Under the pieces are notes generated by a model. That model did not search any database. It was not told where the DNA came from and saw only the letters and a list, made by a program, of their open reading frames with translations. Position numbers and translations under genes: made by a program. This document shows positions 18,744-51,479 of a stretch of DNA of 64,000 nt, in pieces; position 1 is the first letter of the stretch; each line of letters starts with the position of its first letter. The stretch is from an uncultured Thermoleophilia bacterium (lineage in GTDB: Bacteria; Actinomycetota; Thermoleophilia; UBA2241): assembly GCA_963715985.1 (NCBI GenBank), contig CAVQSP010000013.1, positions 448,001 to 512,000 of the forward strand, given 5' to 3'.

Positions 18744-19569
18744 TCACGCCTTCCAGACGGCGATGTCGCCGACGTTGATGTCGGCGGTGGCGTCCACCGG
18801 GCCCATCTTCTGGGCCAGGTAGCCGTCCTTCTCGATGAGCAGGTGTACTCGCCCGGCTCCAGGTCGCGGAGCCAGAAATCGCCGTAGCTGTCCGTTGTCG
18901 CCGAGCAGCTTGCCGCCGCCGGCCTTGAGTGGCCGTGACGGTGGCGCCCTCGGTGCACTCGTCGGCCTCGCTGTCGAAGACGGCGCCGGCGATGAAGGGC
19001 TTGGGCAGGCCGATGTAGTACACGCGCGGCTTGACGTCCAGCTCCGGCTTGAGCGGCTCGGCCTTGGCGACGAGCTCCTTGATCTGCGGGTCGTCCTCTT
19101 CGCCGAAGGCGAAGGCCCCGGTGGGGCAGGCGTCCACGCAGCGCGGCTCGGTCCAGCCGTCGTCCAGGAGGTGCGCGCAGAACGTGCACTTCTGGGCGAT
19201 GTTCAGCGAGTCGTTGAAGTAGATGACGTCCTCGTACGGGCACGCCTCCAGGCACAGCTGATTGCCGCGGCACCTGTCGGGGTCGATGATCACGGCCCCG
19301 TCGTCGCGCTTGTAGATGGCCTCGACGTTGCAGGCCGGGATGCACGGCGCCTCGTCGCAGTGCTGGCAGATGCTGTGCATGTAGGTGACTTTGACCTTGG
19401 GCACCTGGCCGCGCACCTTGTCCTGGATCTTGTTCCAGAACTGACCGGTGTCGGGTTGAGGCTTGGCGATCGGCGACCAGTCGTTGGCCACGTGCTCGTC
19501 CTTGCAGGCCACCTGGCAGTTGTAGCAGCCGTTGCAGATGTTCAGATCGATGACGAGGACCTTGCCCAT
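18744..19569 (-). CDS. BthL-type Fe-S subunit with C-terminal beta-sandwich domain (indels near 18845 and 18930)
   Basis: CNGCYNCQVACKDEH, CQHCDEAPCIPAC, CRGNQLCLEACPY, AQKCTFCAHLLDDGW, KPRVYY, TDSYGDFW. Confidence 0.9.
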
Positions 19570-22166
19570 CACGCCCTCCCCCAGATGCAGGCTTCCAGTC
19601 CGGGACCGGCGCACGGGTGGAACGGCTTCTCGAAGGCCTCAGGGTACTTGGCCTTGAGGTCTTCCATGTCGGTCTTCTCGATGTCCACCAGGAAGCCGCT
19701 CACGGCGTGGCCGACGGCGTTCTTGGAGGTGGTGTTGCGCGGCACGATGGTGTTGATGGCGCCGCCGCGGTCGATCTCGCCGGGGACGATGGGGTCCCAC
19801 TTGGCGCCGTGGTCGATGTAGACCACGGCCGGCATGATCCGCTCGGTGACGTAGGCGCCGGCGAGCACGGTGCCGCGCTCGTTGAAGATCGACACGATGT
19901 CCCCGTGACGGATGCCGCGCTCCTCGGCCACTGACGGGTGCAGCCACACCGGCTGGTACTGGTAGCCGTCGGGGCCGGTGACCTTGCAGGTCTTGATCTC
20001 GCGCAGCCAGGTGATGTCCTCGTGCTGGGAGTGGACGCTCCAGCGAGGGTGGTTGGAGCACACGAGCAGCGGATACTTCTTGGAGCGCTCGGTACCGATG
20101 GTCTCCTCGTGGCTGATGCCCTGTGCGACCCACTTGGGCACCGGCGGCCGCTCGAGGTCACGGGGGAAGTTCTCCGTCAGGCCGGTGGCCTCGAACTCGA
20201 GCTTGCCGGTGGGTGTGGTGAGCGGGTACTTCTCGGGGTCCGCATAGAAGTTGTGGAAGCCGGCCGGCACGTCCTCCCAGCCATCGTCCGTGGGGACGGC
20301 GTAGTAGCCCTTCTCATTGAGCTCTTCCCACGTGATGAGGTCCTCGCAGCGCGAGGTCTCGTAGCCGTACTTGATGAGCTCGGGGATGGTCTTGCCGCCG
20401 GTGTACTCCTCCTTGAGGCCGAGGCGCTCGGAGAGCATGACGGCGATCTCGTAGTCGCTGAAGCTCTCGCCGAGCGGCTCGATGCACTTGTGCTCGGGGA
20501 AGAGCAGGTTGTACTGGCCGCTGAAGATGTCGCCGGCGATGTCGTCCTCTTCGAGCTTGGTGTTCACGGGCAGGATGATGTCTGCCATCAGGCAGTCGTT
20601 CTCCAGCCACGGGTGCTGCGCGAACATGAACTCGATGTCCGGGTGGCGCATGGCCTTGATGTAGTCGTTGCCGCCGTTCCAGCAGGTGATCCAGCTCGGC
20701 GAGTCGGTCCACACCATGTGGATCCTGGAGCAGCCGTCGGCCGGGTACTTGTAGTGCTCGAACTGGTTGACGCGGTCGGCGGTCTCCGACTCGCAGCCGT
20801 ACCAGTCGCACTCGCCCTCGAGGATGGCCTTGGGCACGTACGTCTTGGGGATGAAGGACGGGTGGTTGGACTCGTCCGGGTGGCCGCCGGTGTAGGCCTT
20901 GCGCAGGTAGGGCACGCGCAGCGGCTTGGGCTGGGCGTACTGGTCGGGCTTGTCGAACAGGCCCCACTCGATCATCTTGGCCTGGTTCTGGCCCGGCTTG
21001 CCCAGGCCCTGCATGGCGAGGCAGATGCCCTGCAGGCGGGCCGGCTCGGTGGCGTACGGGCCGCGGATGCCGGGGCCGCCGTTGCCGATGACGACCGTGG
21101 TGCGCTTGCTGGCCCACTCGTCGGCGAGCGCCTTGATGACGCGGGCGGGGACGCCGCAGATCGGCGCCGCCCATTCCGGCGACTTCTCCACGCCGTCCTC
21201 GTCGCCCATCACGTAGGCCTCGTACTTGTCGACGCCCACGGCGTGCGTGGCGAGGTACTCCTTGTCGTACGTGCCCTTCTTGAACCAGCGGTGCGTGATG
21301 GCCAGGTAGAGCGCGGCGTCCGTGTTGGGGAGCACGGGGATCCAACGGTCGGCGTGCACGGCGGCGGCGTAGTTGAGGTCGGGGCACACGTAGATCTGCT
21401 TGATGCCGAGCTCACTCCACCAGTAGCTCAGACGGCTCGGGAGCTGGCCCTGCCAGCCCCACGGGGTGGTCTCCTGGTCGCAGCCCCAGAACAGCAGGAG
21501 CTCGGCGTTCTTGGAGATGTCCCAGAGCAGGTTGCTCTGCATGCCCTGGCCGACGGGCTCGCAGCCCCAGAAGTGCTTGTTGCCCCACCACCAGCCTTCC
21601 CAGCTGTCGGGCTGGCGGATCTGCAGGGTGAAGCCGCCCCACGCGCGCAGCAGCTTGCGGCCGGCGCCGTGGCAGGCCTGCACGACCTTGTTCTCGCCGT
21701 GCTGGTCGCACTGGTACAGGAGCGCGGTGGGCCCGTACTTGGCCTTGATGCGCTCCATCTCGCCGGTGATGATGTCGAGGGCCTGGTCCCACGAGATGCG
21801 CTTGTACTTGCTCACGCCGCGGTTCTGCGGGTTGCGCTCGCCGTTGGGGTCGAAGTCCACGCGCATCATGGGGTAGCGGATGCGGGCCGGGGAGTAGACG
21901 CGCTTCTTGTAGGCGATGCTGTACGGCGGGATCAGGGTCTTCATGCTGGGCTCGAAGGTGCTCCCGCGCACCTCCATCTTCCACGGGTTGAGGTCCGCCT
22001 TCTTGTACTTCCAGTCGTAGTGCATCGGGCGGATGCGGATGATCTTGCCGTCCTTCACGTCGACCATGGACGCGTTGGACCCGTTCTCCGGGACGCCGCA
22101 GAAGCTGATGTCCCTGATCAGCGTCTTCTCTCCGGAGGCGCCGGTCGTGCTCATGTCCTCCGCCAT
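19569..22166 (-). CDS. Divergent pyrogallol-transhydroxylase (AthL)-family Mo-bisPGD subunit, cytoplasmic
   Basis: [34 protein letters not shown] Ser ligand, HPRWSVHSQ; no FS0 motif, no signal peptide; RBS gggagg. Confidence 0.88.
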   Translation of the reverse strand: MAEDMSTTGASGEKTLIRDISFCGVPENGSNASMVDVKDGKIIRIRPMHYDWKYKKADLNPWKMEVRGSTFEPSMKTLIPPYSIAYKKRVYSPARIRYPMMRVDFDPNGERNPQNRGVSKYKRISWDQALDIITGEMERIKAKYGPTALLYQCDQHGENKVVQACHGAGRKLLRAWGGFTLQIRQPDSWEGWWWGNKHFWGCEPVGQGMQSNLLWDISKNAELLLFWGCDQETTPWGWQGQLPSRLSYWWSELGIKQIYVCPDLNYAAAVHADRWIPVLPNTDAALYLAITHRWFKKGTYDKEYLATHAVGVDKYEAYVMGDEDGVEKSPEWAAPICGVPARVIKALADEWASKRTTVVIGNGGPGIRGPYATEPARLQGICLAMQGLGKPGQNQAKMIEWGLFDKPDQYAQPKPLRVPYLRKAYTGGHPDESNHPSFIPKTYVPKAILEGECDWYGCESETADRVNQFEHYKYPADGCSRIHMVWTDSPSWITCWNGGNDYIKAMRHPDIEFMFAQHPWLENDCLMADIILPVNTKLEEDDIAGDIFSGQYNLLFPEHKCIEPLGESFSDYEIAVMLSERLGLKEEYTGGKTIPELIKYGYETSRCEDLITWEELNEKGYYAVPTDDGWEDVPAGFHNFYADPEKYPLTTPTGKLEFEATGLTENFPRDLERPPVPKWVAQGISHEETIGTERSKKYPLLVCSNHPRWSVHSQHEDITWLREIKTCKVTGPDGYQYQPVWLHPSVAEERGIRHGDIVSIFNERGTVLAGAYVTERIMPAVVYIDHGAKWDPIVPGEIDRGGAINTIVPRNTTSKNAVGHAVSGFLVDIEKTDMEDLKAKYPEAFEKPFHPCAGPGLEACIWGRA

Positions 22167-22233
22167 ACTGCCAACCTCCCTGCTCGTGGCCGCGAGCCGC
22201 GACACTGTCCGTTGTCCGGCTCCGAGTGGTGAT

Positions 22234-22298
22234 TCCCACGATGCGGAATGACTCGACCGCATTACGGGCATACTCCTGCGCCGGCGAGCCTCTGTCAA
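22234..22298 (-). promoter_or_regulatory. Promoter with tandem IclR-type boxes
   Basis: Minus strand TTGACA-17-GAGTAT, then gcccgtaatgcggtc-6 nt-ttccgcatcgtggga. Confidence 0.7.
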
Positions 22299-23606: not shown

Positions 23607-24122
23607 TCAGTACGTGCGCAGCACGTCCAGGCGGCCGGCGAGGAAGGCGGCGAGACCGGCGCCGTCCTCGAGCCCGAACAGGTGCTCGTGGGTCAGCGCC
23701 GCGTCGGTGACCAGGGCGATGGCTTCGCCGGGCGCGCAGAGCGGTTCGGCGTGGCCGGCGCCGGTGCGGAACAGCTCCACCCGGTACGGCGCCGTGTTCT
23801 TGTAGCCCTCGGCGACCACCAGGTCGAAGCCGGTGAAGTAGGTCTTCACGATGTCCACCAGGGGCAGCTCGCCGTCCAGCCTGGTGATGAAGGCCAGGCG
23901 TTCGGGCGAGGCGATGGCATAGGCGCGGGCGCCGGCCTGGCCGTGACGCCAGGAGTCCTTGCCCGGATGGTCGATCTCGAAGCTGTGCGCGTCGTGCTTG
24001 ACGGTGCCGACGCGCAGGCCGAGCTTGACGAGCTCGGGCACGACCTTCTCGATGAGGGTGGTCTTGCCCGAGTCGCTCTTGCCCACGATGGCGACGAGGG
24101 CGGGTCGGGTGCGTTCGTCCAT
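23607..24122 (-). CDS. mobB: Molybdopterin-guanine dinucleotide biosynthesis protein MobB
   Basis: IVGKSDSGKTTLIEK, VKHDAHSFEIDHPGKDSWRH, EGYK. Confidence 0.95.
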   Translation of the reverse strand: MDERTRPALVAIVGKSDSGKTTLIEKVVPELVKLGLRVGTVKHDAHSFEIDHPGKDSWRHGQAGARAYAIASPERLAFITRLDGELPLVDIVKTYFTGFDLVVAEGYKNTAPYRVELFRTGAGHAEPLCAPGEAIALVTDAALTHEHLFGLEDGAGLAAFLAGRLDVLRTY

Positions 24123-24184
24123 GCGCCTGATGCTACGCAACTGCGCGCCGCGGGGAAACCCGGGCCCAGGCCCCGGAGCAGCCC

Positions 24185-27344: not shown

Positions 27345-28481
27345 TCAGGAAGTGAAGCCGCGCAGCCCCAGGTGTTCGCCGAGGAAGGCGGCCAGCTCCT
27401 CCACGTCGTCCGGCGCGAAGCGGTGCGGGTGCGGCACGTCGGCGTCGCTGACCAGCGCCAGCGTGACGGACGACGCGAGGAGCGGCTCCTCGCGCCCCTC
27501 ACCGGGGCGGAACACCTCGACGACCCACGGCGTCTCGTGCCGGTACCCCTCACAGACGACGACGTCGTAGGCGGAGAAGTAGCGCGCCACGATGGTGGCG
27601 AGGCTGGGCTCGCGCTCCATGCCGGTGACGAACGCGAGCTGGGAGGACGAGCCCACAGCGTAGGCGTGGGCCCCGGCCTGCGCGTGGCGCCACGAGTCCT
27701 TGCCGGGGGTGTCCAGGTCGAAGCGGGCAACGCGTTTGACGGCGGCGACGCTCAGGCCGCGGCGCGTGAACTCGGGGATGAGCCGCTCGATGAGCGTGGT
27801 CTTGCCGCTCCCCGAGCGGCCGACCACGCCGAGCACGAGCGGCCCGGCGGGCGGGCCTTCACGGCCGTCCGCGGCGCCGTCTTCCTCTCCCGCGAGGCGC
27901 CGCGCCTCGGCCCAGTCGCCCGGCGTGTTGACGTTGAAGAACGGGTGCGCGTCGGTGAACGGGATCTGCCGCACATTCACAAGGGGGTAGAGGTCGAGGA
28001 TGCTGTGCGCCCCGACGGCGAGCAGCGCGCGGATGTGCGGCAGGCAGCCGGGGCCGTACACGGCGTGGAGCGGCTCCAGGTGGCCGCCGACGACGGGCAG
28101 CGCCACGTCGGCGCCGGCGTAGCCGCCCAGCACCCGCTCCACGGCCGCGGCGTCGGGGAAGACGACGTCGGTGGCGAGCGTGAAGAAGGGCTCGCCGAAC
28201 CGCGTGAGCAGCGACGCCAGCCCGGCCAGCGGCGAGCCGGTCACGATGTCCGGGACCACCTCCACGCCCGGCGGCAGCGGGTCCGGCGCCTGGTCGGCAT
28301 CACGTACGGAGAGCGCGACGACGGGGAAGAGGCCGCGCAGGAAGTCGAGGTTGCGCTCCAGCAGCGTGGCCCCGGCGAGGCGCAGACGGCGCTTGTCGTG
28401 CCCCATGCGCCGCGCTTCGCCTCCCGCGAGGAGGGCGCCGATGCGGATGCCGTGCAGGTCGATAGGGGTGTGGCCGGCCAC
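27345..28481 (-). CDS. mobA: Fused MobA (Moco guanylyltransferase)-MobB protein
   Basis: LLAGGEARRMGHDK, SPLAGL, EPLHAVY, FFNVNTP, then VVGRSGSGKTT and GKDSWRH. Confidence 0.92.
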   Translation of the reverse strand: MAGHTPIDLHGIRIGALLAGGEARRMGHDKRRLRLAGATLLERNLDFLRGLFPVVALSVRDADQAPDPLPPGVEVVPDIVTGSPLAGLASLLTRFGEPFFTLATDVVFPDAAAVERVLGGYAGADVALPVVGGHLEPLHAVYGPGCLPHIRALLAVGAHSILDLYPLVNVRQIPFTDAHPFFNVNTPGDWAEARRLAGEEDGAADGREGPPAGPLVLGVVGRSGSGKTTLIERLIPEFTRRGLSVAAVKRVARFDLDTPGKDSWRHAQAGAHAYAVGSSSQLAFVTGMEREPSLATIVARYFSAYDVVVCEGYRHETPWVVEVFRPGEGREEPLLASSVTLALVSDADVPHPHRFAPDDVEELAAFLGEHLGLRGFTS

Positions 28482-32144: not shown

Positions 32145-32552
32145 CAGCCGTCTCCCTCCGGTGCCGGGAGGACTCCCCCGCAGCCTCCCGCCGCTGCCCC
32201 CATGGCGGGCGCCGGGCCACGGAGACGCACCTGGCGCCGTCCCGCCCCTCGCCGGACGGCGCCGCTTCACGTTCTCGGTCACCCCGTATCCGGCCAGCGC
32301 GCAGAAGCGCCTGGACATCGCTCTCCCCGAGCGAGTCGTCAAGCCGTCGGCCGTGATCTCCGAGCACGGCGGAAGCACTTCCTCGCCGCCCGGTCGGATG
32401 GAGCTCCGTGCTGCGTCACTGCCCGAGTGCTCGCCGCGAGGTCCTGCCGGCTTTCGGCTGCCTTGTCGCGCGGAATCGCGTACTATGCGCCAGGCGAGTG
32501 GCAACGGGGACGGCTGTTCCGAGGTCCCGGAGAAGTGAGCTTGAGCGAGCAT

Positions 32553-35190: not shown

Positions 35191-35238
35191 CGAAAGGACA
35201 GGACAGGCGCGGGCTTCCACGCGACCTGGAGGGCTCCC

Positions 35239-38200: not shown

Positions 38201-38299
38201 GCGGCGAACTCCTGCCTCGTGCAGGTGGAGGCGTGGCGCGAGGACGACGTGGTCTGGCCGGCAGCGGGCGGGGGGTCGACGGATGGTGCGCAAGGCTGA
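35239..38299 (+). CDS. AthL-family Mo-bisPGD subunit with N-terminal SCP2-like extension (indel near 37760)
   Basis: ~150 aa extension (..[22 protein letters not shown]..), then [45 protein letters not shown]. Confidence 0.88.
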
Positions 38300-39919: not shown

Positions 39920-39982
39920 TTGACCTCCTTCGGGCCCTGCACTAGTGTTCGCATCATGGAATCGTAGTTCCGTATCGTGGGC
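39920..39982 (+). promoter_or_regulatory. Promoter with tandem IclR-type boxes
   Basis: TTGACC-17-TAGTGT, then gttcgcatcatggaa-6 nt-ttccgtatcgtgggc. Confidence 0.72.
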
Positions 39983-40984: not shown

Positions 40985-41926
40985 ATGGCCAAGGAGCGCG
41001 TGGCCGTCATCGGCGCCGGCCTGATGGGCATCGGCATCGCCCAGGTCTTCGCCGTGGCGGGGCACGAGGTGACACTCCAGGACGCGTTCCCGGAGGCGCT
41101 GGAGCGCGTGCCCTCGGTGGTGCGCGCCAACCTCACGTTCCTGGCCGAGAAGGGCCTCGGCTCTCAGGATGACGTGGAGGGGGCCGTGGCCCGGGTGTCC
41201 ACTACACCCGAGCTGCGTGCCGCCGTGCAGGGGGCGGCATTCGTGGTCGAGTGCGTCTACGAGGATCTCGCGCTCAAGCAGGGCGTGTTCGAGCAGCTCG
41301 ACGACGCCTGCCCGCCCTCCACGATCCTGTGCACCAACACGTCGGTGATGAGCATCACCGAGATCGGCGCGCGCGCCGTGCGCAAGGAGCGCGTGGTGGG
41401 CACGCACTTCTGGAACCCGCCGTTCCTCATCCCGCTGGTGGAGGTGGTGCGCACGGCCGACGTCGCCGACGACGTCGTGCTGCGCACCATGGAGATGCTG
41501 CGCAGCGTGGGCAAGCGGCCCATCGACTGCAAGAAGGACGTGCCCGGCTTCGTGGCCAACCGTCTGCAGCACGCACTGTGGCGCGAGGCGATCTCCATCG
41601 TGGAGCACGGCATCGCCGACGCCGCCACGGTGGACGAGAGTATCCGCTACGGACCCGGGCTACGACTGCCGGTCCTCGCGCCCATGGAGAACGCGGACAT
41701 GGTGGGGCTGGACCTCACCCTCGCCATCCACGACTACATCCTGCCGCACCTGGAGGCGTCGGGAGAGCCGTCGCCGCTGCTGCGCGCCAAGGTGGCCGAC
41801 GGCGACCTCGGCTTCAAGAGCGGGCACGGCTTCCAGGACTGGACGCCGGAGCAGGCGGAGGAGTCCCGCCAGCGGCTGGTGAGCTACCTGGTGCACGTGC
41901 TCACCGACGACCAGAGAGGCCTGTAG
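40985..41926 (+). CDS. 3-hydroxyacyl-CoA dehydrogenase family protein (candidate 3-hydroxy-5-oxohexanoate dehydrogenase)
   Basis: IGAGLMGIGIA, TNTS, GTHFWNPP, KDVPGFVANRLQ. Confidence 0.88.
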   Translation: MAKERVAVIGAGLMGIGIAQVFAVAGHEVTLQDAFPEALERVPSVVRANLTFLAEKGLGSQDDVEGAVARVSTTPELRAAVQGAAFVVECVYEDLALKQGVFEQLDDACPPSTILCTNTSVMSITEIGARAVRKERVVGTHFWNPPFLIPLVEVVRTADVADDVVLRTMEMLRSVGKRPIDCKKDVPGFVANRLQHALWREAISIVEHGIADAATVDESIRYGPGLRLPVLAPMENADMVGLDLTLAIHDYILPHLEASGEPSPLLRAKVADGDLGFKSGHGFQDWTPEQAEESRQRLVSYLVHVLTDDQRGL

Positions 41927-41994
41927 CAGGCCGCAAACGGGCAGGATGCCGGGCCGGCCGCACGGTGCGTGCCGTCGCCGGGGAGGAGTGCGGA

Positions 41995-42777
41995 GTGACG
42001 GAACGGCGTGACGGCGTGCAGGTGCTGGAGCGTGCGGCGCAGATGCTCCGCGCGCTCTCGGCCGAGCCCGACGGTCTCACGTCCATCGAGCTCGCCGACC
42101 GCGTCGGGCTGCCGCGCTCCACCGCCTATCGCATCGTGGGCGCGCTCGCCAGCGAGGGCTTCGTACGGGTGTCGCCCGGCGGCAAACTCTCCATCGGCGC
42201 CGGGCTCATCGGTATCGCCACCGCCGGGCGGCGCGATCTGCGGCACGAGGCCTCGCCGTACCTGGAGCGCCTGTCGCACGAGCTGCACGAGACGGTCGAG
42301 CTCGTGGTCCTGGACGGTGGTGACGCCCTCTTCACCAACCAGTTCGTCTCGTCGCGGTCGCTGCGCGTGGTGGCCGAGGTCGGCGACCGCTTCCCCCTCT
42401 ACTGCACGGCGTGCGGCAAGGCGCTCCTCGCGGAGCTGCCGCACGCCGAGGCCGTGCGGCTCATCCCGCGCAAGCTCAAGGCGCACACGCCGCACACCAA
42501 CGTCGACCGCGAGGACCTGCTCAGGGAGCTGGACCTGGTGCGCTCCACCGGCGTCGCCTTCGACCGCCAGGAGCACACGGTCGGCGTCTCCGCCGTGGGC
42601 GCCGCCATCCGCGACGCGGCGGGCTCCGTGGCCGCGCTCACCGTGGTCATGCCGGCGGCCCGCCTCGAGGGCGACGAAGAGCGCATCGCGTCGGCGCTCC
42701 TGCGGGTCCGCGACGAGATCCAGACGGCGCTCAACGGCGAGGGCACGCCCTTCGCCGGCAACGGGCGCCCATCTTGA
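41995..42777 (+). CDS. IclR family transcriptional regulator 3
   Basis: GVQVLERA, GLPRSTAYRIV, HETVELV, PLYCTACGKALLA. Confidence 0.93.
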   Translation: MTERRDGVQVLERAAQMLRALSAEPDGLTSIELADRVGLPRSTAYRIVGALASEGFVRVSPGGKLSIGAGLIGIATAGRRDLRHEASPYLERLSHELHETVELVVLDGGDALFTNQFVSSRSLRVVAEVGDRFPLYCTACGKALLAELPHAEAVRLIPRKLKAHTPHTNVDREDLLRELDLVRSTGVAFDRQEHTVGVSAVGAAIRDAAGSVAALTVVMPAARLEGDEERIASALLRVRDEIQTALNGEGTPFAGNGRPS

Positions 42778-42839
42778 CACCGGCTTTGCCGCGCGAGTAG
42801 CGTATCCACGATACGGCATCTCGTGTCCGAGATGCGGAC
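42774..42839 (+). promoter_or_regulatory. Promoter with tandem IclR-type boxes
   Basis: TTGACA-18-TAGCGT, then atccacgatacggca-6 nt-gtccgagatgcggac. Confidence 0.72.
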
Positions 42840-42984: not shown

Positions 42985-43920
42985 ATGGGGAAGAAGGTAT
43001 TCGTCGACCTCAGCCATCCGTTCGGTGCGGACATGCCGCTGTGGCCCTATTTCACCAAGCCGGTGATCGACACGATGCACGGCCTGGCCAAGTCCGGCGT
43101 CCTGAGCCAGAAGGTCACCGTCGTGCAGCACTGCGGCACGCATGCAGATGCGCCGCGCCACGTCATGGAACGCGACTTCGCCGGCAACCGCGCGAGATAC
43201 AGTCACGAACTGCCTGTGGATGCGTACGTCGGCGATGCGGTCTGCCTGGACATCAAGGTCGAGGACTGGGGCCTGATCAAGGGCGAGCACCTCGACGACG
43301 CCTGCGAGCGCGCGAACATCAAGCCCGAGGAGCTCAAGGGCATGGTGATCTGCCTGCGGACCGGCATGCACCTCAAGTACGACGACAGCAAGGACTACTA
43401 CCACTACTCGTGCGGCACCGGCCTGGACGCGGGCAACTGGTTCCAGAAGTACATGCCGAAGTGCGTCGCCATGGACATGCAGGCGCTGGACCACCCTCTG
43501 CACACGGCCATGGGCAAGAACGGCCCCACCCAGATGAACCTGCCCGGTAACTCGGGCCGGCCGATCACCGAGGAGTACATCGAGAAGTTCGGTCTCGAGG
43601 CGTATGCCGAATTCGAGCGGGACGTGTACATCGAGGTGTTCGGCATGGACAAGTACATGGAGGCCTACGGGCAGCTGGAGCGTGCGAATCAGCCGGGGAC
43701 CTGGGAGCCCTGCCACAAGCTCATGATGGGCAACGGCATCGTCGGCGTCGAGAACCTCGGCGGAGACCTCGACAAGGTCGTGGGCAAGCGCTTCCGCTTC
43801 TTCGCGTTCCCCCTCCGCTGGTGGCTGGGCGACGGCTCGATGGTCCGCTGCGCTGCGGAGATCGACGAGGACGACATGAACGACGTCCCCGACCGGACCT
43901 ACAAGTACGGCGTCATCTGA
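42985..43920 (+). CDS. Cyclase/kynurenine-formamidase-family metal hydrolase (candidate dihydrophloroglucinol cyclohydrolase)
   Basis: DLSHP, HCGTHADAP metal motif, LRTG, H..GIVGVENL, GDGS. Confidence 0.85.
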   Translation: MGKKVFVDLSHPFGADMPLWPYFTKPVIDTMHGLAKSGVLSQKVTVVQHCGTHADAPRHVMERDFAGNRARYSHELPVDAYVGDAVCLDIKVEDWGLIKGEHLDDACERANIKPEELKGMVICLRTGMHLKYDDSKDYYHYSCGTGLDAGNWFQKYMPKCVAMDMQALDHPLHTAMGKNGPTQMNLPGNSGRPITEEYIEKFGLEAYAEFERDVYIEVFGMDKYMEAYGQLERANQPGTWEPCHKLMMGNGIVGVENLGGDLDKVVGKRFRFFAFPLRWWLGDGSMVRCAAEIDEDDMNDVPDRTYKYGVI

Positions 43921-43936: not shown

Positions 43937-44287
43937 GTGGAAGTCACGCGCTACGACGAGGCCCCGAGCTACGAGGCTCCCGGGCATTTCGGTGTCTACG
44001 GCCTGCGCCTGCAGGGCTTCGAGGTCAGCAAGACCCGCAGTTTCTGGATGAGCATCTCTCACTTCCTGCCCGGTGGTGGCTGCGAGTACGTCGCCACGCC
44101 GATCGAGAAGGTGTACTTCGTGCTCGAGGGTGAGGTCACCGTCAAGACCGAGGAGGGCGAGGTCATCCTCAAGAAGTATGACTCCGTCTACCTGGCGCCC
44201 GATGAGGCTCGCTCCATCCTGAACCGCACCAACTCGCCGGCGACGATGCTCGTCGCCATCCCGTATCCGGAGCCTCGCGAGTTCTGA
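43937..44287 (+). CDS. Cupin domain protein
   Basis: SHFLPGGG..EKVYFVLEGEVTV..DSVYLAPDEARSILN. Confidence 0.88.
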   Translation: MEVTRYDEAPSYEAPGHFGVYGLRLQGFEVSKTRSFWMSISHFLPGGGCEYVATPIEKVYFVLEGEVTVKTEEGEVILKKYDSVYLAPDEARSILNRTNSPATMLVAIPYPEPREF

Positions 44288-44465
44288 TGACGCGCGCCGG
44301 GACCCCAGTCCTGGTCGGCTTCATGGCCGCGCAGCCCCGTGGGGCGTGCGCAGGCCGCGGCGGACGCGGGCGGCGGCACCACAGGTGCCGCCGCCCGCGC
44401 TTCCGCGGCGCCGGTCTGTCTCCCGCGACCGGCTGATCCACCCATCGACCTCTGAGGAGGCCACA

Positions 44466-45296
44466 ATGCCCAACCCGATCATCACCGCGGCACTCACCGG
44501 CCCGGTCGCGACCAAGGCCGACAACCCGGGGATGCCGGGCAGCGTGGCCGAGATCGCCGCGTCCGCCAAGGCGTGCTACGACGCCGGCGCGGCCGTCATC
44601 CACATCCACCTGCGCGACGACGACGGCACCATGACCGCCGACCTCGACGTGGCCAAGCGCACCGTCGCGGCGGTGCGCGAGGTGTGCCCCGGCATCACCC
44701 AGCTGTCCACAGGCGGGCTGCAGTTCACCTACGAGCAGCGCATGGCTCTCGTCGAGGCCAAGCCGGCGATGGCCACGCTCAACCCGTGCACCATGACGTT
44801 CGGCGCGGCCGAGTTCAAGAACCCGCCCAAACAGATGATGGAGCTCGCCGCGCGCATGATCGAGCTCGGCGTCAAGCCCGAGGTCGAGATCTACGACACG
44901 GGGCATCTCGACATGATGCTCTACCTTGTGCACAAGGGACTGCTCGTCGAGCCGCTGCAGGTCTCCTTCGTCATGGGCGTCCGCGGCGGCATGCGCGGCG
45001 ATCCCCAGCTGCTCTCCTGGCTCGTCCGCGAGCTGCCTGCGGGCACAAGCTGGCAGGTGATCGCGGTCGCCAAAGCCAACCTGCCCATGACCACCATCGG
45101 TCTGGCCATGGGCGGCAACGCCCGCACGGGCATGGAGGACACCCTCACGCTGAGCAAGGACGTGCCGGCCGAGTCCAACCTGCAGCTCGTCGAGCGTCTG
45201 GTGGGCATCGCGCACTCGATGCAGCTGCGGCCGGCCACCGTGCCGGAGGTCGTGGAGCGCCTCAAGCTCCACCCCGACCTCGTGCACGGAGGCTGA
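44466..45296 (+). CDS. Beta-keto acid cleavage enzyme (BKACE/Kce family; candidate triacetate lyase)
   Basis: IITAALTG, GAAVIHIHLRD, STGG, KPEVEIYDTGH, RTGMED. Confidence 0.9.
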   Translation: MPNPIITAALTGPVATKADNPGMPGSVAEIAASAKACYDAGAAVIHIHLRDDDGTMTADLDVAKRTVAAVREVCPGITQLSTGGLQFTYEQRMALVEAKPAMATLNPCTMTFGAAEFKNPPKQMMELAARMIELGVKPEVEIYDTGHLDMMLYLVHKGLLVEPLQVSFVMGVRGGMRGDPQLLSWLVRELPAGTSWQVIAVAKANLPMTTIGLAMGGNARTGMEDTLTLSKDVPAESNLQLVERLVGIAHSMQLRPATVPEVVERLKLHPDLVHGG

Positions 45297-45367: not shown

Positions 45368-45430
45368 TTGACACCGTACGGGGCGGCTATATGATGCCCG
45401 TATCGTGGGAGACCCGTCCGTATGGCGGAT
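45368..45430 (+). promoter_or_regulatory. Promoter with tandem IclR-type boxes
   Basis: TTGACA-16-TATGAT, then gcccgtatcgtggga-5 nt-gtccgtatggcggat. Confidence 0.72.
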
Positions 45431-45613
45431 GTGGCGAGGGCCCTCAGGCCCTCATGTGAAGAGGAACACAACGTCCGGTCGCGCTCGGCGGCGGACAGCG
45501 GCACAGAGTCGGGCGCAACAGGCGTCAAGACGGACCCAAGGGGGGGTCCACGCGCGTCTCAGGCTCGCAGCGCGGGCTGTACGACGTCGCGGGACCGCGA
45601 CAAGGAGGGCGGC

Positions 45614-47035
45614 ATGAGCTCTGACGAACGCACACCAAACCAGGTCGGCGCGGCCGACGAAGCCGGGTTCGGCCGCAAGGCCGTTACGCGGCGCGACTTC
45701 CTCAAGACCGCCGGTGTGGCCGGCGCGGCGCTGGGCATCGCCGGCGGCGCCGGCAGCGTGCTGGCCGCCTGCGGCACCACCTCCAGCGAGGGCAGCGGCG
45801 GCGGCAGCAGCAGCGGCGCCGAGGGCCGCACCATCAAGGTGGGCTTCGTCGCCCCCCTCACCGGCCAGCTGGCCGCGTTCGGCGAGACCGACCAGTGGCT
45901 CGTGGAGCAGTGGATGACCGCCGTCAAGGACGGCGTGCAGTGCGGCGACGGCCAGGTCCACCCGATCGAGATCATCATCAAGGACTCGCAGTCCGACTCG
46001 AACCGTGCGGCCACGGTGGCCGGCGACCTCGTCACCAACGACGGCGTCGACGTCATGATGGTCGCCTCCACCCCCGACACGGTGAACCCGGTCGCCGACC
46101 AGGCCGAGGCTCTGTCCGTGCCGTGCGTGTCCAACGACTGCCCGTGGCAGCCGTACTACTTCGGCCGCGGCGCCACGCCCGACAAGCCTTTCACGTGGAC
46201 CTACCACGCCTTCTGGGGTCTCGAGGACGTCACTGCCGTGTTCACCGGCATGTGGGACCAGCTGACGACGAACAAGAAGATCGGCGCGATGTGGCCGAAC
46301 GACGCCGACGGCCTCGGCTGGGCCGACCCCAAGACGGGCCAGCCGCCGATGCTCAAGGCGGCCGGCTACACGGTCGTGGACGGCGGCCGCTTCCAGGACG
46401 GCACCGAGGACTACACGCCGCAGATCAGCAAGTTCAAGGCGGCCGGTTGCGACATCCTCAGCGGCGTGTTCATCCCGCCGGACTTCGTCAACTTCTGGAA
46501 GCAGTCGTACCAGCAGGGCTTCCAGCCCGTGGCCGCCACGGTCGGCAAAGCGCTGCTCTTCCCGGCCGAGATGGAGGCCATCGGCGACATCGGCTACGGG
46601 CTCACCACCGAGTGCTGGTGGTCGCCGTGGCACCCGTTCAAGTCGTCGCTCACCGGCCAGACCTGCCAGGAGCTTTCCGACGCCTGGGTCTCGAGCACCG
46701 GCAAGGAATGGAACCAGACGTTGCTGCACTACGCCGTCTTCGAGGTCGTCGTCGACTCCCTCAAGCGCGCCACCAGCGTCGACGACAAGCAGGTCATCCT
46801 GGACGCCATCAAGGCCACCGACATGAACACGATCCAGGGTCACATCACCTGGTCGGCCGGCGCCCCGCTGAACCCTGTCCCCAACGTCTGCCGCACCGTG
46901 CTGGTGGGCGGCATGTGGACCAAGGGCACCGACTACCCGTTCGATCTGCTCCTCGTCGACACGGCTCACGCCGCGGCGGAGCCGTTCAACGTGACCATCC
47001 CCACCAACGGCAAGCTCGTTCCTATCAGCTACTGA
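45614..47035 (+). CDS. ABC substrate-binding protein (LivJ-like fold), Tat lipoprotein, copy 2
   Basis: TRRDFLK plus LAAC; clear paralogue of 33508..34881 (CGDGQVHPI, NDCPWQ, WADP). Confidence 0.9.
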   Translation: MSSDERTPNQVGAADEAGFGRKAVTRRDFLKTAGVAGAALGIAGGAGSVLAACGTTSSEGSGGGSSSGAEGRTIKVGFVAPLTGQLAAFGETDQWLVEQWMTAVKDGVQCGDGQVHPIEIIIKDSQSDSNRAATVAGDLVTNDGVDVMMVASTPDTVNPVADQAEALSVPCVSNDCPWQPYYFGRGATPDKPFTWTYHAFWGLEDVTAVFTGMWDQLTTNKKIGAMWPNDADGLGWADPKTGQPPMLKAAGYTVVDGGRFQDGTEDYTPQISKFKAAGCDILSGVFIPPDFVNFWKQSYQQGFQPVAATVGKALLFPAEMEAIGDIGYGLTTECWWSPWHPFKSSLTGQTCQELSDAWVSSTGKEWNQTLLHYAVFEVVVDSLKRATSVDDKQVILDAIKATDMNTIQGHITWSAGAPLNPVPNVCRTVLVGGMWTKGTDYPFDLLLVDTAHAAAEPFNVTIPTNGKLVPISY

Positions 47036-47120
47036 GTCGTCCTGTCCCCGACCCCTGATGCCCGGCAAGTGCGGCCCGTGCACACGAGGAGGTAGAAGTG
47101 ATGCAGGGCGGTGAGACCCC

Positions 47121-47846
47121 GTGACTGCGGTCCTGGAGATCGCCGGTCTCAACAAGTCCTTCGGCGGCGTCAAGGTCATCGACGACCTGAGCATGACGCT
47201 GCACGAGGGTGAGGCACTGGGCATCGTCGGGCCGAACGGCGCCGGCAAGACCACGATGTTCAATCTGATCACCGGCGTGTATCGGCCCGACGAGGGCCGG
47301 GTCCTGTACAAGGGCAAAGACATCACGCACCACTCGCGGCACGCGCGCTGCCGCGAGGGCATCGGCCGCACGTTCCAGATCCCCAAGCCGTTCGGCGACA
47401 TGAGCGTGTTCGAGAACGTGCTCGTGTGCGCCGCCTACGGGCGCGGCATGAGCGAGCGTTCGAGCTACCAGCGCTGCGTGGAGACGCTGGAGCTCACCGG
47501 GCTGGCGCCGAAGGCCAACAAGCAGGCCGGGGCGCTGCCGCTGCTCGACCGCAAGCGGCTCGAGATGGCCCGCGCGCTCGCCGGCGACCCTACGGTCCTT
47601 CTCCTGGACGAGATCGCCGGCGGCCTCACCGAGGCCGAGGTCGAGGACCTCATCGTGACGGTCAAGGACCTCCACAACGAAGGCATCTCCATCATCTGGA
47701 TCGAGCACATCGTGCACGCGCTCCTGGCCGTGGTGCAGCGCATCGTCGCCATCAGCTTCGGCCACAACCTGATCGAAGGCGACCCCGAAGAGGTCATGTG
47801 CAGCGACGAGGTGCAGGCCTGTTACATGGGGGGGACGCCGATATGA
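47121..47846 (+). CDS. ABC ATP-binding protein, LivG-like
   Basis: GPNGAGKTT, GRTFQIP, LLDE, IEH. Confidence 0.93.
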   Translation: MTAVLEIAGLNKSFGGVKVIDDLSMTLHEGEALGIVGPNGAGKTTMFNLITGVYRPDEGRVLYKGKDITHHSRHARCREGIGRTFQIPKPFGDMSVFENVLVCAAYGRGMSERSSYQRCVETLELTGLAPKANKQAGALPLLDRKRLEMARALAGDPTVLLLDEIAGGLTEAEVEDLIVTVKDLHNEGISIIWIEHIVHALLAVVQRIVAISFGHNLIEGDPEEVMCSDEVQACYMGGTPI

Positions 47847-48541
47847 GTGTGCTGGAGCTCCAGGACGTCGACGTCTTCTACGGCGACTTCCAGGCCCTGT
47901 TCAAGGTGTCCTTCACGGTCGAGCAGGGCCAGACCTTCGCCTGCATCGGCGCCAACGGCGGCGGCAAGTCGACGATGCTCCGCACCGTGGCCGGCGCGCT
48001 GCGCCCGAAGTCGGGTCACGTGCTGTTCCGCGGCGAAGCGGTCGACAACGTCCCCGCGCACGATCGCGTCAAGATGGGCATCGCCCTCGTTCCCGAAGGG
48101 CGCCGCGTGTTTCCCAGTCTGAGCGTGTTCGAGAACCTGCAGATCGGCGGGTACGGCGGGCGCAAGGGCGACTGGAACATGGAGTCCGTGCTCGAGCTCT
48201 TCCCGCTGCTCAAGCCGCTCATCAAGCGGCAGGCGTCGAGCCTCTCCGGCGGTGAGCAGCAGGCCCTGGCCATCGGCCGGGCGCTGATGTCCAACCCCGA
48301 GCTGCTGCTGCTCGACGAGGTGTCCCTGGGTCTCGCGCCGGTGGTCATCAAGCGCATCTACGAAGCCATGGTGCACCTTGTGGGCACCGGCACGACCATC
48401 GTGGTGGTCGAGCAGGATGTGCAGCACGTGCTCACCGTGGCGGACCACGTCGCGTGCTTCCTCGAAGGCCGCATCAGCCTCGAGGGCAAGCCGAGCGAGC
48501 TGACCTCGGAAGCTATCACTGCAGCCTACTTCGGGATGTGA
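47843..48541 (+). CDS. ABC ATP-binding protein, LivF-like
   Basis: GANGGGKST, VPEGRRVF, LSGGEQQ, LDEVSLGLAP, VEQ. Confidence 0.93.
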   Translation: MSVLELQDVDVFYGDFQALFKVSFTVEQGQTFACIGANGGGKSTMLRTVAGALRPKSGHVLFRGEAVDNVPAHDRVKMGIALVPEGRRVFPSLSVFENLQIGGYGGRKGDWNMESVLELFPLLKPLIKRQASSLSGGEQQALAIGRALMSNPELLLLDEVSLGLAPVVIKRIYEAMVHLVGTGTTIVVVEQDVQHVLTVADHVACFLEGRISLEGKPSELTSEAITAAYFGM

Positions 48542-48545
48542 GGTC

Positions 48546-49418
48546 ATGGTCTGGGTCAACGTAACTCTTCAGGGCATTCTCCTGGGCGGGCTGTACGCGC
48601 TGTTCGCGACCGGCCTCGCGCTGGTGTTCGGCGTCATGCGCACGGTGAACCTGGCGCACGGCGACCTCGGCATCCTGGCCGCGTACATCTGTCTCTTCAT
48701 CGTGCAGTCGTTCAGCATCGGTGTGCTGTGGTCCGGCATCGTGACGATCGTGATCATGTTCGTCGTCGGCTATCTGCTCCAGCGAGGGCTCCTCAACTCC
48801 GTCCTGGGCAGCGACGACACCCGCCCCATCGTGGTCACCTTCGGCCTCTCGATCATCATCCAGAACGGCCTGATCATGTGGTGGTCGGCCGACTCGCAGG
48901 GCCTGGACGCGGGTGCCATCGAGAACGCCAGCATCACCATCACCAAGCAGCTGGCCATCGGCTGGTTCCCCCTGCTGGTGTTCCTGCTCTCCATCGTCGT
49001 GATCGCGCTGCTGCAGCTCTTCCTCAACCGCACGCGCATGGGGCGCGCCTTTCGCGCCACCTCCGACGACCGTGAGGCGGCCGAGCTCATGGGCATCAAC
49101 AACCGGCACATCTACGGGCTCGCCATGGCCATCGCCCTCGGCATCGTGGCGATCGCCGGCATCATGCTGGCGGTGCGCAGCACGTTTGACCCCTCACAGG
49201 GCTCCTTCCGCCTGATCTTCGCGTTTGAGGCCGTGATCATGGGCGGCATGGGGTCCATCTGGGGCACGCTCCTCGGAGGTGTGGTCCTCGGCATGTCCCA
49301 GACCATCGGCGCGCAGGCGTTCGGCGCCGGGTGGGGTCTGCTGGTCGGCCACCTCGTGTTCCTCACCGTGCTGGCCGTGAGGCCCAGCGGCTTCTTCGCG
49401 AAGACGGTGACCGCATGA
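48546..49418 (+). CDS. ABC permease, LivH-like
   Basis: GGLYALFATGLALVFGVMRTVNLAHG, GRAFRA, GGMGS. Confidence 0.92.
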   Translation: MVWVNVTLQGILLGGLYALFATGLALVFGVMRTVNLAHGDLGILAAYICLFIVQSFSIGVLWSGIVTIVIMFVVGYLLQRGLLNSVLGSDDTRPIVVTFGLSIIIQNGLIMWWSADSQGLDAGAIENASITITKQLAIGWFPLLVFLLSIVVIALLQLFLNRTRMGRAFRATSDDREAAELMGINNRHIYGLAMAIALGIVAIAGIMLAVRSTFDPSQGSFRLIFAFEAVIMGGMGSIWGTLLGGVVLGMSQTIGAQAFGAGWGLLVGHLVFLTVLAVRPSGFFAKTVTA

Positions 49419-50548
49419 ATAGCCAGCGTAGACAGGCTATCGAGCGGGGCACCGGAGGCCCACCGCTCCGCGCCCAGGAGCAGCCGTTGGTCGTGCCCGA
49501 GTTCCGCGTCGCGCGCTCCCAGCGCATGCACCGCTGGGTGCTCATCATCTCCATCGCGCTTGTGGTCGGTCTGGCCAGCGTGCCCTTCTGGTCCACGGTG
49601 GCCGTGTGTCGCACGATGGTGACGCTCTTCACCCTCATGGCCCTGGCCCAGATGTGGAACCTGCTCGGCGGCTACGCCGGGCTCATCTCCGTGGGCCAGC
49701 AGGCCTACATCGGGCTCGGCGCCTACGGTGTGTGGCTCATGGGCGACGTGATCGGCCTCAACCCGTTCGTGGCCGTGTTCCTGGCCGGCGGGCTCGCCGT
49801 GCTCATCGCGCTGCCGGTCGCCCCGCTGATCTTCCGCCTGCGCGGTGGCTACTTCGCCATCGGCACGTGGGTCGTGGCCGAGGTGGTGCGGCTCGTCGTG
49901 GCCAATATCCAGGCCACGGGCGGCGGCTCCGGCAAGACGGTCATCTCCGTAGCGAAGCTGCCCATCACCACACGCATCCCCGGCACGTACTGGCTGGCCC
50001 TGGTCGTGGCGGTCGGCTCGATCCTGCTCGTCTACCTCCTGCTGCGCTCGCGCAACGGCCTGGCTCTCACCGCCATCCGTGACAACGACCTGGCGGCGCA
50101 GAGCTCGGGCGTCAACGTGTTCCGCACCAAGCTCTACGTCTACCTGCTCGCGGCGTTCGGCTGCGGCGTCGTGGGGGCCGTTGTCGCCATGAACCTGCTG
50201 CGCATCCAGCCCGCGGCGGCCTTCAGCATCAACTGGACGGCGTACGCGATCTTCATCGTGGTGATCGGGGGCTTTGGCACCATCGAAGGCCCCATCATCG
50301 GATCGGTCATCTACTTCGCGCTGCTGCAGACCCTGAGCCAGTACGGCACCACCTACATGCTGCTGCTCGGCGTCATCGCCGTGATCGTGGTGGCCAGGGC
50401 CCCGCGCGGCATCTGGGGCTTCGTGGTGAAGCGCTGGGACATCCACCTCTTCCCGGTGAGACGTAGCCTGGTGCTGCTGGACCTGCCACCGGAAGCGACA
50501 CCCAAGGCTCCGGCCGGCCAGACCGGCCCTGCCCCCGAAGCGGGCTGA
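49415..50548 (+). CDS. ABC permease, LivM-like
   Basis: WNLLGGYAGLISVGQ, RLRGGYFAIGT, AIRD, IGGFGTIEGP. Confidence 0.92.
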   Translation: MNSQRRQAIERGTGGPPLRAQEQPLVVPEFRVARSQRMHRWVLIISIALVVGLASVPFWSTVAVCRTMVTLFTLMALAQMWNLLGGYAGLISVGQQAYIGLGAYGVWLMGDVIGLNPFVAVFLAGGLAVLIALPVAPLIFRLRGGYFAIGTWVVAEVVRLVVANIQATGGGSGKTVISVAKLPITTRIPGTYWLALVVAVGSILLVYLLLRSRNGLALTAIRDNDLAAQSSGVNVFRTKLYVYLLAAFGCGVVGAVVAMNLLRIQPAAAFSINWTAYAIFIVVIGGFGTIEGPIIGSVIYFALLQTLSQYGTTYMLLLGVIAVIVVARAPRGIWGFVVKRWDIHLFPVRRSLVLLDLPPEATPKAPAGQTGPAPEAG

Positions 50549-50699
50549 GAGGGAAGCGTGACGTGAGGGCGCCGGCGCCAGGCCCCCGGGGCTGTACTCC
50601 GGCGCCCTCACCCGTTCGATAAGACGAGAACCACGAGGTGCACTACCGGCGCCGGTCGTAGGGGGCGCACGGGGACGGCACCCGCGTGACGGAGGTCGT

Positions 50700-51479
50700 G
50701 TGAGCGAGTCACAGGAAGAAGCGCAACAGACGCGCAACGGAGTGCAGGTACTGGGCCGGGCGGCCCTCATCCTGCGGCTGCTGGCCGCCGACTCCTCGGG
50801 CGGGCTCACGTTCAGCGAGCTCGTCACCAGGGCCGGCCTGCCGCGCACCACGGTGCACCGCATCCGCTACGCTCTCGAACACGAAGGCTTCGTCTGCACC
50901 GACGAGGTCACCGGCAGGCTGCGCCTGGGTCCCGGCCTGCTGCAGCTGGCCGTGGCCAGTCGCAGGGACCTGCCCAGTGTGGTGCGGCCGTACCTCGAGC
51001 GGCTCTCCACGGAGCTCAACGAGACGGTCGACCTTGCCGTGCTGGACGGCATGCACGTGCTCTTCATCGCCCAGACTCCGGCTCCGCAGCGCTCCCTCAT
51101 GGTCGTCTCGCGGGTCGGAGCGCGGTTCCCCGCCTTCTGCACCGCCAACGGCAAGGCCCTGCTCGCCAAGCTGCCTCCCGACGACCTCAAACAGCGCCTC
51201 CCGCGCCGCCTCGAGACGTCCTCGCTGCACCTGCCCGTCTCTCGCGAAGCGCTCCTGCGAGAGCTCGCCGAGATCCGCAAGACCGGCGTAGGCTACGACC
51301 GTGAAGAGCATCACGCCGGCATCTGCGGCATCGGCGTGGTGATCACCGACATCGACGGCAGCATGGCCTCGATCGCCGTCCCCATGCCGACCGCCAGGTT
51401 CTACGAGGACGCCGACATCGTCGCAAACGCGCTCTTGCGCGTGCGCGACGAGATCGAGGTGGCCCTGCAGAGTGCCTGA
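50700..51479 (+). CDS. IclR family transcriptional regulator 4
   Basis: [39 protein letters not shown]. Confidence 0.93.
   Translation: MSESQEEAQQTRNGVQVLGRAALILRLLAADSSGGLTFSELVTRAGLPRTTVHRIRYALEHEGFVCTDEVTGRLRLGPGLLQLAVASRRDLPSVVRPYLERLSTELNETVDLAVLDGMHVLFIAQTPAPQRSLMVVSRVGARFPAFCTANGKALLAKLPPDDLKQRLPRRLETSSLHLPVSREALLRELAEIRKTGVGYDREEHHAGICGIGVVITDIDGSMASIAVPMPTARFYEDADIVANALLRVRDEIEVALQSA

Follow-up and report, generated by a model that had tools for sequence, protein, structure and literature searches.

Does an uncultured bacterium of the Thermoleophilia carry, in a single gene island, a route for using trihydroxybenzenes without oxygen? The question is raised by a 64-kb stretch of one such genome (GenBank assembly GCA_963715985.1, contig CAVQSP010000013.1, positions 448,001 to 512,000 of the forward strand; hereafter the window), in which an earlier note, made from the DNA letters, had proposed a complete anaerobic degradation pathway from pyrogallol via phloroglucinol to acetyl-CoA. 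Positions 18744-51479 of the window are referred to as the island. Tannins and flavonoids are major carbon stores of wet soils, and their oxygen-independent breakdown proceeds via pyrogallol and phloroglucinol. Judged by homology and gene context, from which all steps of the mechanism given below are drawn, the island is probably a conserved, IclR-controlled catabolic unit for oxygen-independent trihydroxybenzene use via phloroglucinol. It would bring every stage of the route, starting with import and ending with C-C cleavage, under a single operator in uncultured Thermoleophilia of soil and wetland.

The source genome comprises 4.35 Mb. Genes in the window, which has a GC content of about 70%, were called via third-position GC, and the candidate frames were then scanned with Pfam. 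All gene classes named in the earlier note were found to be encoded in the island, and its core inference survives, in that a single Thermoleophilia island combines upper and lower pathway, import, molybdenum (Mo) cofactor supply and regulation by IclRs. The assignment to Thermoleophilia is borne out by the relatives retrieved with the transhydroxylase gene AthL2, most of which are titled 'uncultured Thermoleophilia bacterium'. The lineage was not known to be credited with the pathway, and literature searches with lineage and pathway terms, judged by title, found no paper on the pathway in Thermoleophilia. The lineage table of PMC10470551 contains no Thermoleophilia, and six lineage names are absent from the supplements of that paper, one file of which was covered in part, so that their absence is unproven. 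Genome surveys already annotate pgthAB and the phloroglucinol reductase (PGR) in environmental metagenome-assembled genomes (MAGs; two preprints), and PMC10470551 discusses the pathway in connection with the 'enzyme latch' view of how peat carbon is preserved. The enzymes of the island are of known kinds and show no new kind of chemistry; the novelty lies in the lineage and in some additional parts, namely an AthL paralogue fused to an SCP2-like domain (AthL3) and a cupin, both of which are worth bench work. Further leads are candidate organisms for polyphenol turnover in wet soils, a regulon of four IclRs and one operator for transcriptomes, and AthL paralogues with altered pockets for enzymology.

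Transhydroxylase and lower-pathway genes

The upper pathway is represented by AthL2 (28663..31266, strand +), an orthologue of the transhydroxylase large subunit with an AhtL-like_1st domain, and by BthL2 (31263..32096, +), the small subunit. These genes lie side by side and are translationally coupled, the start ATG of BthL2 overlapping the AthL2 stop (ATGA). Both products align full length with the subunits of Pelobacter acidigallici AthL/BthL (PDB 4v4c, 4v4d, 4v4e). AthL2 matches the solved chain 4v4c_A with 1200 bits (query residues 29-891, chain residues 3-870) at an identity of roughly two thirds, read by eye off the printed alignment, and BthL2 matches 4v4c_B over its full length with 247 bits (residues 2-271 against 3-272). 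Like the P. acidigallici enzyme, AthL2 has the AhtL-like first domain, has no Pfam Fe4S4-domain match and shows no detected twin-arginine (TAT) signal. By Pfam, the first domain (PF21423) is found in AthL2 and in both of its paralogues in the island, AthL1 and AthL3, and Molybdop_Fe4S4 is matched in none of them. The active site, which we take to be formed by Ser175 (the Mo ligand), H144, R153, D174, Y404 and Y560, has these letters at these positions in the 4v4c_A chain, and AthL2 retains all six, the Ser ligand as well as those surrounding it. Copies of AthL2 with 85-95% identity occur in many Thermoleophilia MAGs.

The island also differs from the P. acidigallici system. BthL2 has an Asp in place of the fourth Cys of the first CxxCxxCxxxC motif, whereas the solved small subunit and BthL1, the second small subunit of the island, have Cys. 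This Asp is common to BthL2 orthologues at three related loci (L017, L032 and L040) and to a copy on another contig of the genome (C11; L049:5604-6482), and 11 Cys are invariant across seven homologues. The small subunit of the known transhydroxylase has three [4Fe-4S] clusters; in BthL2-type subunits the first motif may hold an Asp-ligated or altered cluster. Furthermore, the host of the island is a high-GC actinobacterium that encodes oxygen reductases, and the island holds two further large-subunit paralogues, one of them fused to the SCP2-like domain and without a beta subunit.

The phloroglucinol route consists of a short-chain dehydrogenase (SDR; PGR), a cyclase-family dihydrophloroglucinol cyclohydrolase (DPGC), a 3HCDH-family dehydrogenase (TfD) and a BKACE (triacetate acetoacetate-lyase, TAL) (PMC10470551). 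The four enzyme families of the Clostridium scatologenes PGR-DPGC-TfD-TAL cluster (Zhou et al. 2023, PMC10470551) are adjacent in the island as well, at 40162-45296 (Pfam), and the set recurs in related loci. SDR2 (40162..40959, +; Pfam adh_short_C2) is the candidate PGR, and its orthologue is the sole SDR in a compact operon of a second family (55-57% identity). Among the best 60 of its 651 solved-chain matches there is no PGR, and no specific NCBIfam model was found for it. The next gene (40985..41926, +; Pfam 3HCDH_N and 3HCDH) is the candidate (S)-3-hydroxy-5-oxohexanoate dehydrogenase, and the characterised TfD belongs to the 3HCDH family (PMC10470551). The candidate DPGC is a cyclase-family hydrolase (42985..43920, +; Pfam Cyclase; the open reading frame, ORF, opens at 42823) whose homologues have 310-314 aa and are strongly conserved. 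Its identity to Acidaminobacter hydrogenoformans protein P0019 is 78%, and a 312-aa A. hydrogenoformans protein, A0A1G5RXX5, is a member of UniRef50_E3PU66 together with the characterised CsDPGC, A0A0E3JZE4 (PMC10470551, supplementary data 3). By its sequence, the cyclase is in this indirect way tied to the characterised DPGC cluster, the only lower-pathway enzyme so tied; its matches to solved structures are weak and are to kynurenine formamidases and MJ0783.

The candidate TAL is a BKACE (44346..45296, +; Pfam BKACE, 292 bits), which probably starts near 44466 because its homologues are of 276 aa. Its best solved-structure match is Kce. The best 120 hits are metagenomic with at least 72% identity, and the few that bear an organism name are Thermoleophilia or Actinomycetes MAGs. 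Searches of solved structures with SDR2, the cyclase and BKACE gave no chain linkable to PGR, DPGC or TAL, and NCBIfam holds no specific model for the four lower-pathway enzymes; BKACE and the SDRs are candidates by gene context. Between the cyclase and BKACE genes lies a cupin gene (43937..44287, +; Pfam Cupin_2). Within the window's own family its identity is 74-94%, and in the second family, at 39%, the gene once more adjoins BKACE. In the ESM Atlas it falls in generic 'cupin' clusters only, and the main text of PMC10470551 has no mention of a cupin. The conserved cupin is one of the features by which the island differs from the C. scatologenes cluster. The others are a second SDR and an ABC importer, where the paper describes a major-family transporter (PMC10470551), four IclR regulators, the physical joining to transhydroxylase genes, and a BKACE whose clade has only actinobacterial MAGs among its named members.

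Shared operator, accessory functions and conservation

A 12-nt operator motif, CCGTATCGYGGG, was first noticed on reading the intergenic DNA; a repeat search over the island gave paralogy only and did not recover it. At one mismatch or fewer, CCGTATCGYGGG occurs five times in the 64-kb window against 1.17 expected, and five or more matches were obtained in 2 of 100 shuffles. All five are located upstream of island units: AthL1 (22235..22246, -; one mismatch, CCGCATCGTGGG), AthL2 (28559-28570, +; exact), SDR2 (39970..39981, +; exact), the cyclase gene (42805..42816, -; inverted, one mismatch) and SBP2, a solute-binding protein (45398-45409, +; exact). Given this excess and this placement, the shared operator that had been claimed earlier is real. 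The whole genome contains four exact copies, three of them in the island. The fourth (C8:157560), between an alpha/beta-hydrolase gene and a DUF459/GDSL gene, has no evident island link and was set aside. The motif is also kept in relatives. In the related loci (857 kb), 21 of 32 operator matches are at -60 to +450 nt of the starts of orthologous genes, nine of them at SDR2, six at SBP2, four at the cyclase gene and one each at AthL1 and AthL2. The copies before SDR2 and SBP2 are kept in nine and six loci, respectively, the same inverted copy precedes the cyclase gene in at least four, and locus L021 has an exact copy at the place that matches the AthL1 upstream copy.

A scan of 28000-46000 with a promoter consensus found four promoter-like sites against 0.8 expected. 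Those before AthL2 (from 28529, +; TTGACA-16-TAGGAT) and SBP2 (from 45368, +; TTGACA-16-TATGAT) end 3 nt before an exact operator copy. Since the operator lies 3 nt past the -10 hexamer at both promoters, its placement suits a repressor. AthL3 and SBP1, a second solute-binding protein gene, are preceded by promoter-like sites of their own (that of SBP1 at 33426-33454), with different palindromes, and the four IclRs therefore probably do not all act on one site. Palindromes of the form GGAA-N6-TTCC were observed before AthL3, within 35120-35175 (GGAATGAACGTTCC and TTCCATAAGATGGAA), and before SDR2, within 39940-39970 (GGAATCGTAGTTCC). These palindromes may be a second operator type for another IclR.

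All four IclRs have an N-terminal HTH_IclR and a C-terminal IclR effector domain (Pfam HTH_IclR and IclR_C) and are encoded on the + strand: IclR1 at 32202..33344, IclR2 at 38283..39062, IclR3 at 41990..42777 (residues 259-486 of the ORF 41251-42774) and IclR4 at 50700..51479. The helix-turn-helix of IclR1 begins at residue 136, so that its true start is probably near 32560. The importer (45422..50548, +) comprises SBP2 with its TAT signal (45422..47035; Pfam Peripla_BP_6 and TAT_signal), two ATPases (47121-47846 and 47846-48541; both Pfam ABC_tran) and two permeases (48546-49418 and 49331-50548; both Pfam BPD_transp_2). SBP1 (33508..34881, +) has the same two Pfam matches and is followed, after about 160 nt, by a terminator-like hairpin at 35040-35073. 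The Mo genes are on the - strand upstream of AthL2. The molybdate ABC importer is encoded by ModA (26239-27144; Pfam SBP_bac_11), ModB (25273-26220; BPD_transp_1) and ModC (24185-25244; ABC_tran and TOBE, with a one-base frameshift near 24693). MobB, for molybdopterin-guanine dinucleotide synthesis, lies at 23607..24140 (Pfam MobB, E 6e-41). A MobA-MobB fusion for bis-molybdopterin guanine dinucleotide (bis-MGD) maturation, divergent from AthL2, lies at 27345..28481 (NTP_transf_3 and MobB); it scores 230 bits against NCBIfam NF011056, under the cut-off of 379 bits.

We retrieved 45 related loci with AthL2 from species-representative genomes, with 10-kb flanks, and compared them by tblastn. They are mostly uncultured Thermoleophilia MAGs with 85-95% identity. 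Many share the order mod/mob upstream, AthL2/BthL2, then IclR, SDR1, SDR2, 3HCDH, IclR, cyclase, cupin, BKACE and binding protein, where the flank reaches. In a second family the genes form the compact operon BKACE-cupin-SDR-3HCDH-cyclase-AthL-BthL, and orthologues of AthL1/BthL1 come next. A synteny survey had been proposed earlier as a check, and here the linkage recurs in many of the 45 loci. We then surveyed the class in 301 genomes (300 sampled and the window's own) of twelve families, which are kin, so their counts are not independent. The cyclase was found in 57 of the 301: 17 of 55 in family f1, 39 of 55 in family f4 and the window's own genome, and none in the ten other families. An AthL homologue (E <= 1e-150) was found in 66 (f1, 24 of 55; f4, 41 of 55), and comparison of the two lists showed that, leaving aside the window's own genome, each of the 56 cyclase-positive genomes is AthL-positive as well. 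The genomes of f4, the sister family, have 17 to 108 first-look AthL candidates each, which suggests that transhydroxylase paralogues have expanded greatly there. In metagenomes, the searched island stretch is partly present (39-60% of sampled words) in all 24 listed wetland and soil runs, from 23 named studies; no RNA run is among the listed sequencing runs that share it.

Proposed route and competing readings

In the route that we favor, TAT-exported binding proteins and a LivFGHM-type ABC system would import the phenol, and the cytoplasmic Mo enzyme AthL2/BthL2, with a bis-MGD cofactor provided through the adjacent ModABC, MobA-MobB and MobB genes, would shift a hydroxyl and turn pyrogallol into phloroglucinol. 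The known pyrogallol-phloroglucinol transhydroxylase uses tetrahydroxybenzene as cosubstrate for this conversion. SDR2 would convert phloroglucinol to dihydrophloroglucinol, the cyclase-family enzyme would open the ring to (S)-3-hydroxy-5-oxohexanoate, the 3HCDH-family enzyme would turn this into triacetate, and BKACE would form acetoacetyl-CoA and acetoacetate from triacetate and acetyl-CoA. Thiolases and CoA-transferases encoded elsewhere would complete the route to acetyl-CoA. Other hydroxylated aromatics probably enter this route through AthL1/BthL1, the SCP2-fused AthL3 and SDR1, and the repressor-type operator CCGTATCGYGGG would make a single regulon of the importer and of the upper and lower pathways. 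Two words of the earlier proposal need to be narrowed. The island is linked as far as C-C cleavage, but 'complete to acetyl-CoA' is overstated, the thiolase and CoA-transferase genes being elsewhere. 'Anaerobic' fits the chemistry rather than the bacterium, whose genome codes for a cytochrome bd and a haem-copper oxidase and which therefore need not be a strict anaerobe.

Several points weigh against this route. The island comes from a bin that is 88.8% complete with 7.29% contamination. The thiolase and CoA-transferase genes lie outside the island, which also has no gallate decarboxylase, and no candidate for one was found in the 88.8%-complete bin. SDR2 and the 3HCDH gene are candidates assigned from family and position only. 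BKACE scores under every NCBIfam cut-off (262 against 382 bits for the Kce equivalog and 153 against 430 bits for the 3,5-dioxohexanoate model) and shares just 37-40% identity with its counterpart in the operon of the second family. Because the named hits among its best 120 are all Thermoleophilia or Actinomycetes MAGs, it could not be connected with CsTAL. Lastly, the genome encodes a further AthL/BthL pair at C11:58600-62400 (L049:5604-9391, -), which is likewise frameshifted and is flanked by ligA, surE and a dimethylamine-methyltransferase-like gene. With 932 bits to P. acidigallici chain residues 1-467 and roughly 85-90% identity by a hand count of the printed alignment, its large subunit is far closer to the P. 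acidigallici enzyme than the island copies are, and AthL2 may therefore prefer a different substrate.

The latter point leads to an alternative in which the C11 copy, not AthL2/BthL2, is the pyrogallol enzyme, and the island paralogues funnel other polyhydroxybenzenes (hydroxyhydroquinone, resorcinol, tetrahydroxybenzene or substituted forms) to phloroglucinol, the lower pathway standing as it is. The score of the C11 copy is reached over just 467 chain residues, and the copy has a BthL-like neighbor of its own. With seven AhtL-like_1st matches in the genome and up to 108 first-look candidates in f4, the family is diversifying, and among the island copies AthL3 has R153 changed to W and AthL1 is without R153 and the Y560 segment. 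AthL2, however, retains all six active-site residues, is the copy kept next to the cyclase operon in both families and has the operator in common with the lower pathway, whereas around the C11 copy there are housekeeping genes (ligA, surE) but no catabolic partners. We consider it unlikely that pyrogallol is left to the C11 copy. It could also be asked whether the SDR/3HCDH/cyclase/BKACE block acts on a different beta-keto acid or cyclic dione, its proximity to AthL reflecting shared regulation of aromatic catabolism. BKACE and both SDRs are indeed without a specific family assignment, and the genome has seven BKACE and five Pfam Cyclase matches at three places, including a second cluster on contig C14. 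Such a reading is nonetheless very improbable in view of the indirect link of the cyclase to the characterised DPGC cluster, the co-occurrence of four families that together are the published pathway signature, and the single operon that they form with AthL/BthL in the second family.

The pathway could also be partly lost, if the island is decaying in this strain. The assembly has five one-base frameshifts in four genes, BthL1 (~18920), ModC (~24693), AthL3 (~37758) and SDR1 (~39290 and ~39792), which would be pseudogenes if the frameshifts are real. The lesion at 37758 is not in a long homopolymer, and split genes occur in some relatives too (AthL3 at 3 of 11 loci, ModC at 2 of 16). On the other hand, each of the five can be removed by a one-base deletion, and thus all look like one extra base. 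In BthL1, the L032 orthologue matches two frames (residues 1-217 at 19572-18922 and 220-277 at 18917-18747), and the open frame is restored by any single-base deletion tried between 18890 and 18949. ModC, split over two frames here, is one frame in 14 of 16 related loci, as are AthL3 in 8 of 11 and SDR1 in 4 of 4 comparable loci. In a comparison that covered contigs only, independent, near-identical metagenome contigs have one base fewer at 24693 (run X2), 37758 (run X1) and 39792 (runs X1 and X2). Removal of the base opens frames of 352 aa in ModC and 1037 aa in AthL3. The SDR1 frame is lost again after residue 171, and a 253-aa open frame results when 39792 and one further base near 39290 are removed. 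It counts against the favored route that no listed contig bridges the frameshift at ~18920, which is outside the compared stretch, or that at ~39290. Housekeeping genes of the window are interrupted likewise, namely argS (54691-56443; two frames, switching near 55400) and ispF (12106-12615; a fragment match), which shows indel errors to be general in the assembly, and a neighboring Psr-like cluster is also broken. The core genes AthL2, BthL2, SDR2, TfD, DPGC and BKACE are intact. The five frameshifts are thus most likely assembly insertions and not gene decay, and we give a decaying island only a slight chance.

Paralogues, the SCP2-like domain and neighboring genes

AthL3 (35185..38299, +) consists of an SCP2-like domain (residues 1-172) and an AthL paralogue, the latter 56% identical to AthL2 over two frames and scoring 852 bits against 4v4c_A. 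It retains five of the six active-site residues, R153 being replaced by W, and has no adjacent gene for the beta (small Fe-S) subunit. The 172-aa N-terminal domain has no Pfam match even at E <= 1. Its model, from a 14-row alignment, has a pLDDT of 87.1 and a pTM of 0.80, and Foldseek returned 34 PDB matches at E <= 0.001, of which those listed are SCP2 or SCP2-type-domain proteins. The top match is UbiJ-SCP2 6h6o_A (E 3.3e-6; TM 0.52 to the query and 0.62 to the target), and TM scores over the UbiJ chains range from 0.52 to 0.68 (normalised to query and to target). The modelled domain adopts the alpha/beta SCP2 fold. The fusion is kept in 14 loci: 11 close relatives in frame, L046 split over two frames, and the distant L030 and L044 in frame, the last of which is alphaproteobacterial.

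A more far-reaching reading can be offered tentatively, and we regard it as possible but doubtful. The SCP2-fused AthL3 and the conserved cupin would be two undescribed parts, and the class would be specialised in moving hydroxyl groups on plant phenols without oxygen in wet soils. This reading leans also on the large AthL paralogue expansions in the sister family. If it were true, the lipid-binding-type domain of AthL3 might carry a quinone or a hydrophobic, substituted polyphenol (for instance a resorcinol or phloroglucinol with an alkyl or acyl group) to the Mo site, and the cupin could be a fifth, unrecognised enzyme of an actinobacterial phloroglucinol pathway.

AthL1 (19569..22298, -; Pfam AhtL-like_1st, Molybdopterin and Molydop_binding) is the more divergent paralogue, with 454 bits to 4v4c_A and 34% identity to AthL2; its true start is probably near 22166. 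It retains H144, D174, S175 and Y404, and its orthologues in related loci are 67-94% identical. The Fe-S small subunit BthL1 (18744..19572, -; Pfam Fer4_11, with its frameshift at ~18918-18921) is paired with it. The resorcinol hydroxylase RhL/RhS of Azoarcus anaerobius belongs to the RhL/PgtL branch of the DMSO-reductase family, which comprises Ser-coordinating Mo enzymes for O2-independent phenol hydroxylation (PMC10100899). Likened by description, RhL/RhS is a plausible model for AthL1 or AthL3, although AthL3 differs from it in carrying the SCP2-like domain and in having no adjoining Fe-S subunit. The accessory dehydrogenase SDR1 (39119..39882, +) matches Pfam adh_short in two frames.

Elsewhere in the genome, we observed a possible second aromatic island at C14:504000-541000 (L050 = 521000-540999). 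At 504-511 kb, a BKACE is accompanied by two thiolase and two or three cyclase matches; genes further along encode a binding protein of the Peripla_BP_6 family, NrfD and Fe-S subunits, and one regulator each of the IclR and GntR families, and three AhtL-like matches occur there too. The earlier note had also stated that the window holds no UbiD-type gallate decarboxylase, and no UbiD-family gene is there. The sole UbiD gene of the genome (C11:522240-524190; L051:9244-11190) was rejected as a gallate decarboxylase, with a UbiA prenyltransferase gene about 3 kb away and multihaem cytochrome genes both in between and further on; its surroundings look like quinone biosynthesis rather than gallate decarboxylation.

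Between AthL1 and MobB, at 22520-23450 (-), two genes are inserted: one encodes a PIN domain, and the other, upstream of it, is an ORF of 177 aa that resembles RHH weakly (E 0.017). The two may form a toxin-antitoxin pair, and they have no match in any of the 45 related loci. This pair, the N-terminal domain of AthL3 and the five frameshifts had escaped the earlier note. Ahead of the island, a Psr/Ttr-like molybdoenzyme cluster (13318-18141, +) encodes a catalytic subunit with an Fe4S4 domain, a Fer4_11 subunit and an NrfD anchor; it is spread over several frames, its Fe-S subunit alone occupying three frames in 600 nt. At the other end, an NADPH-dependent FMN-reductase-family gene (51472..52089, +; Pfam FMN_red) overlaps the end of IclR4. 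It may belong to the island and sits beyond the reach of the related loci. Just beyond the island, at 52322-54100 (+), a V4R domain is encoded together with a GGDEF diguanylate cyclase; V4R domains are generally regarded as binders of small hydrophobic molecules.

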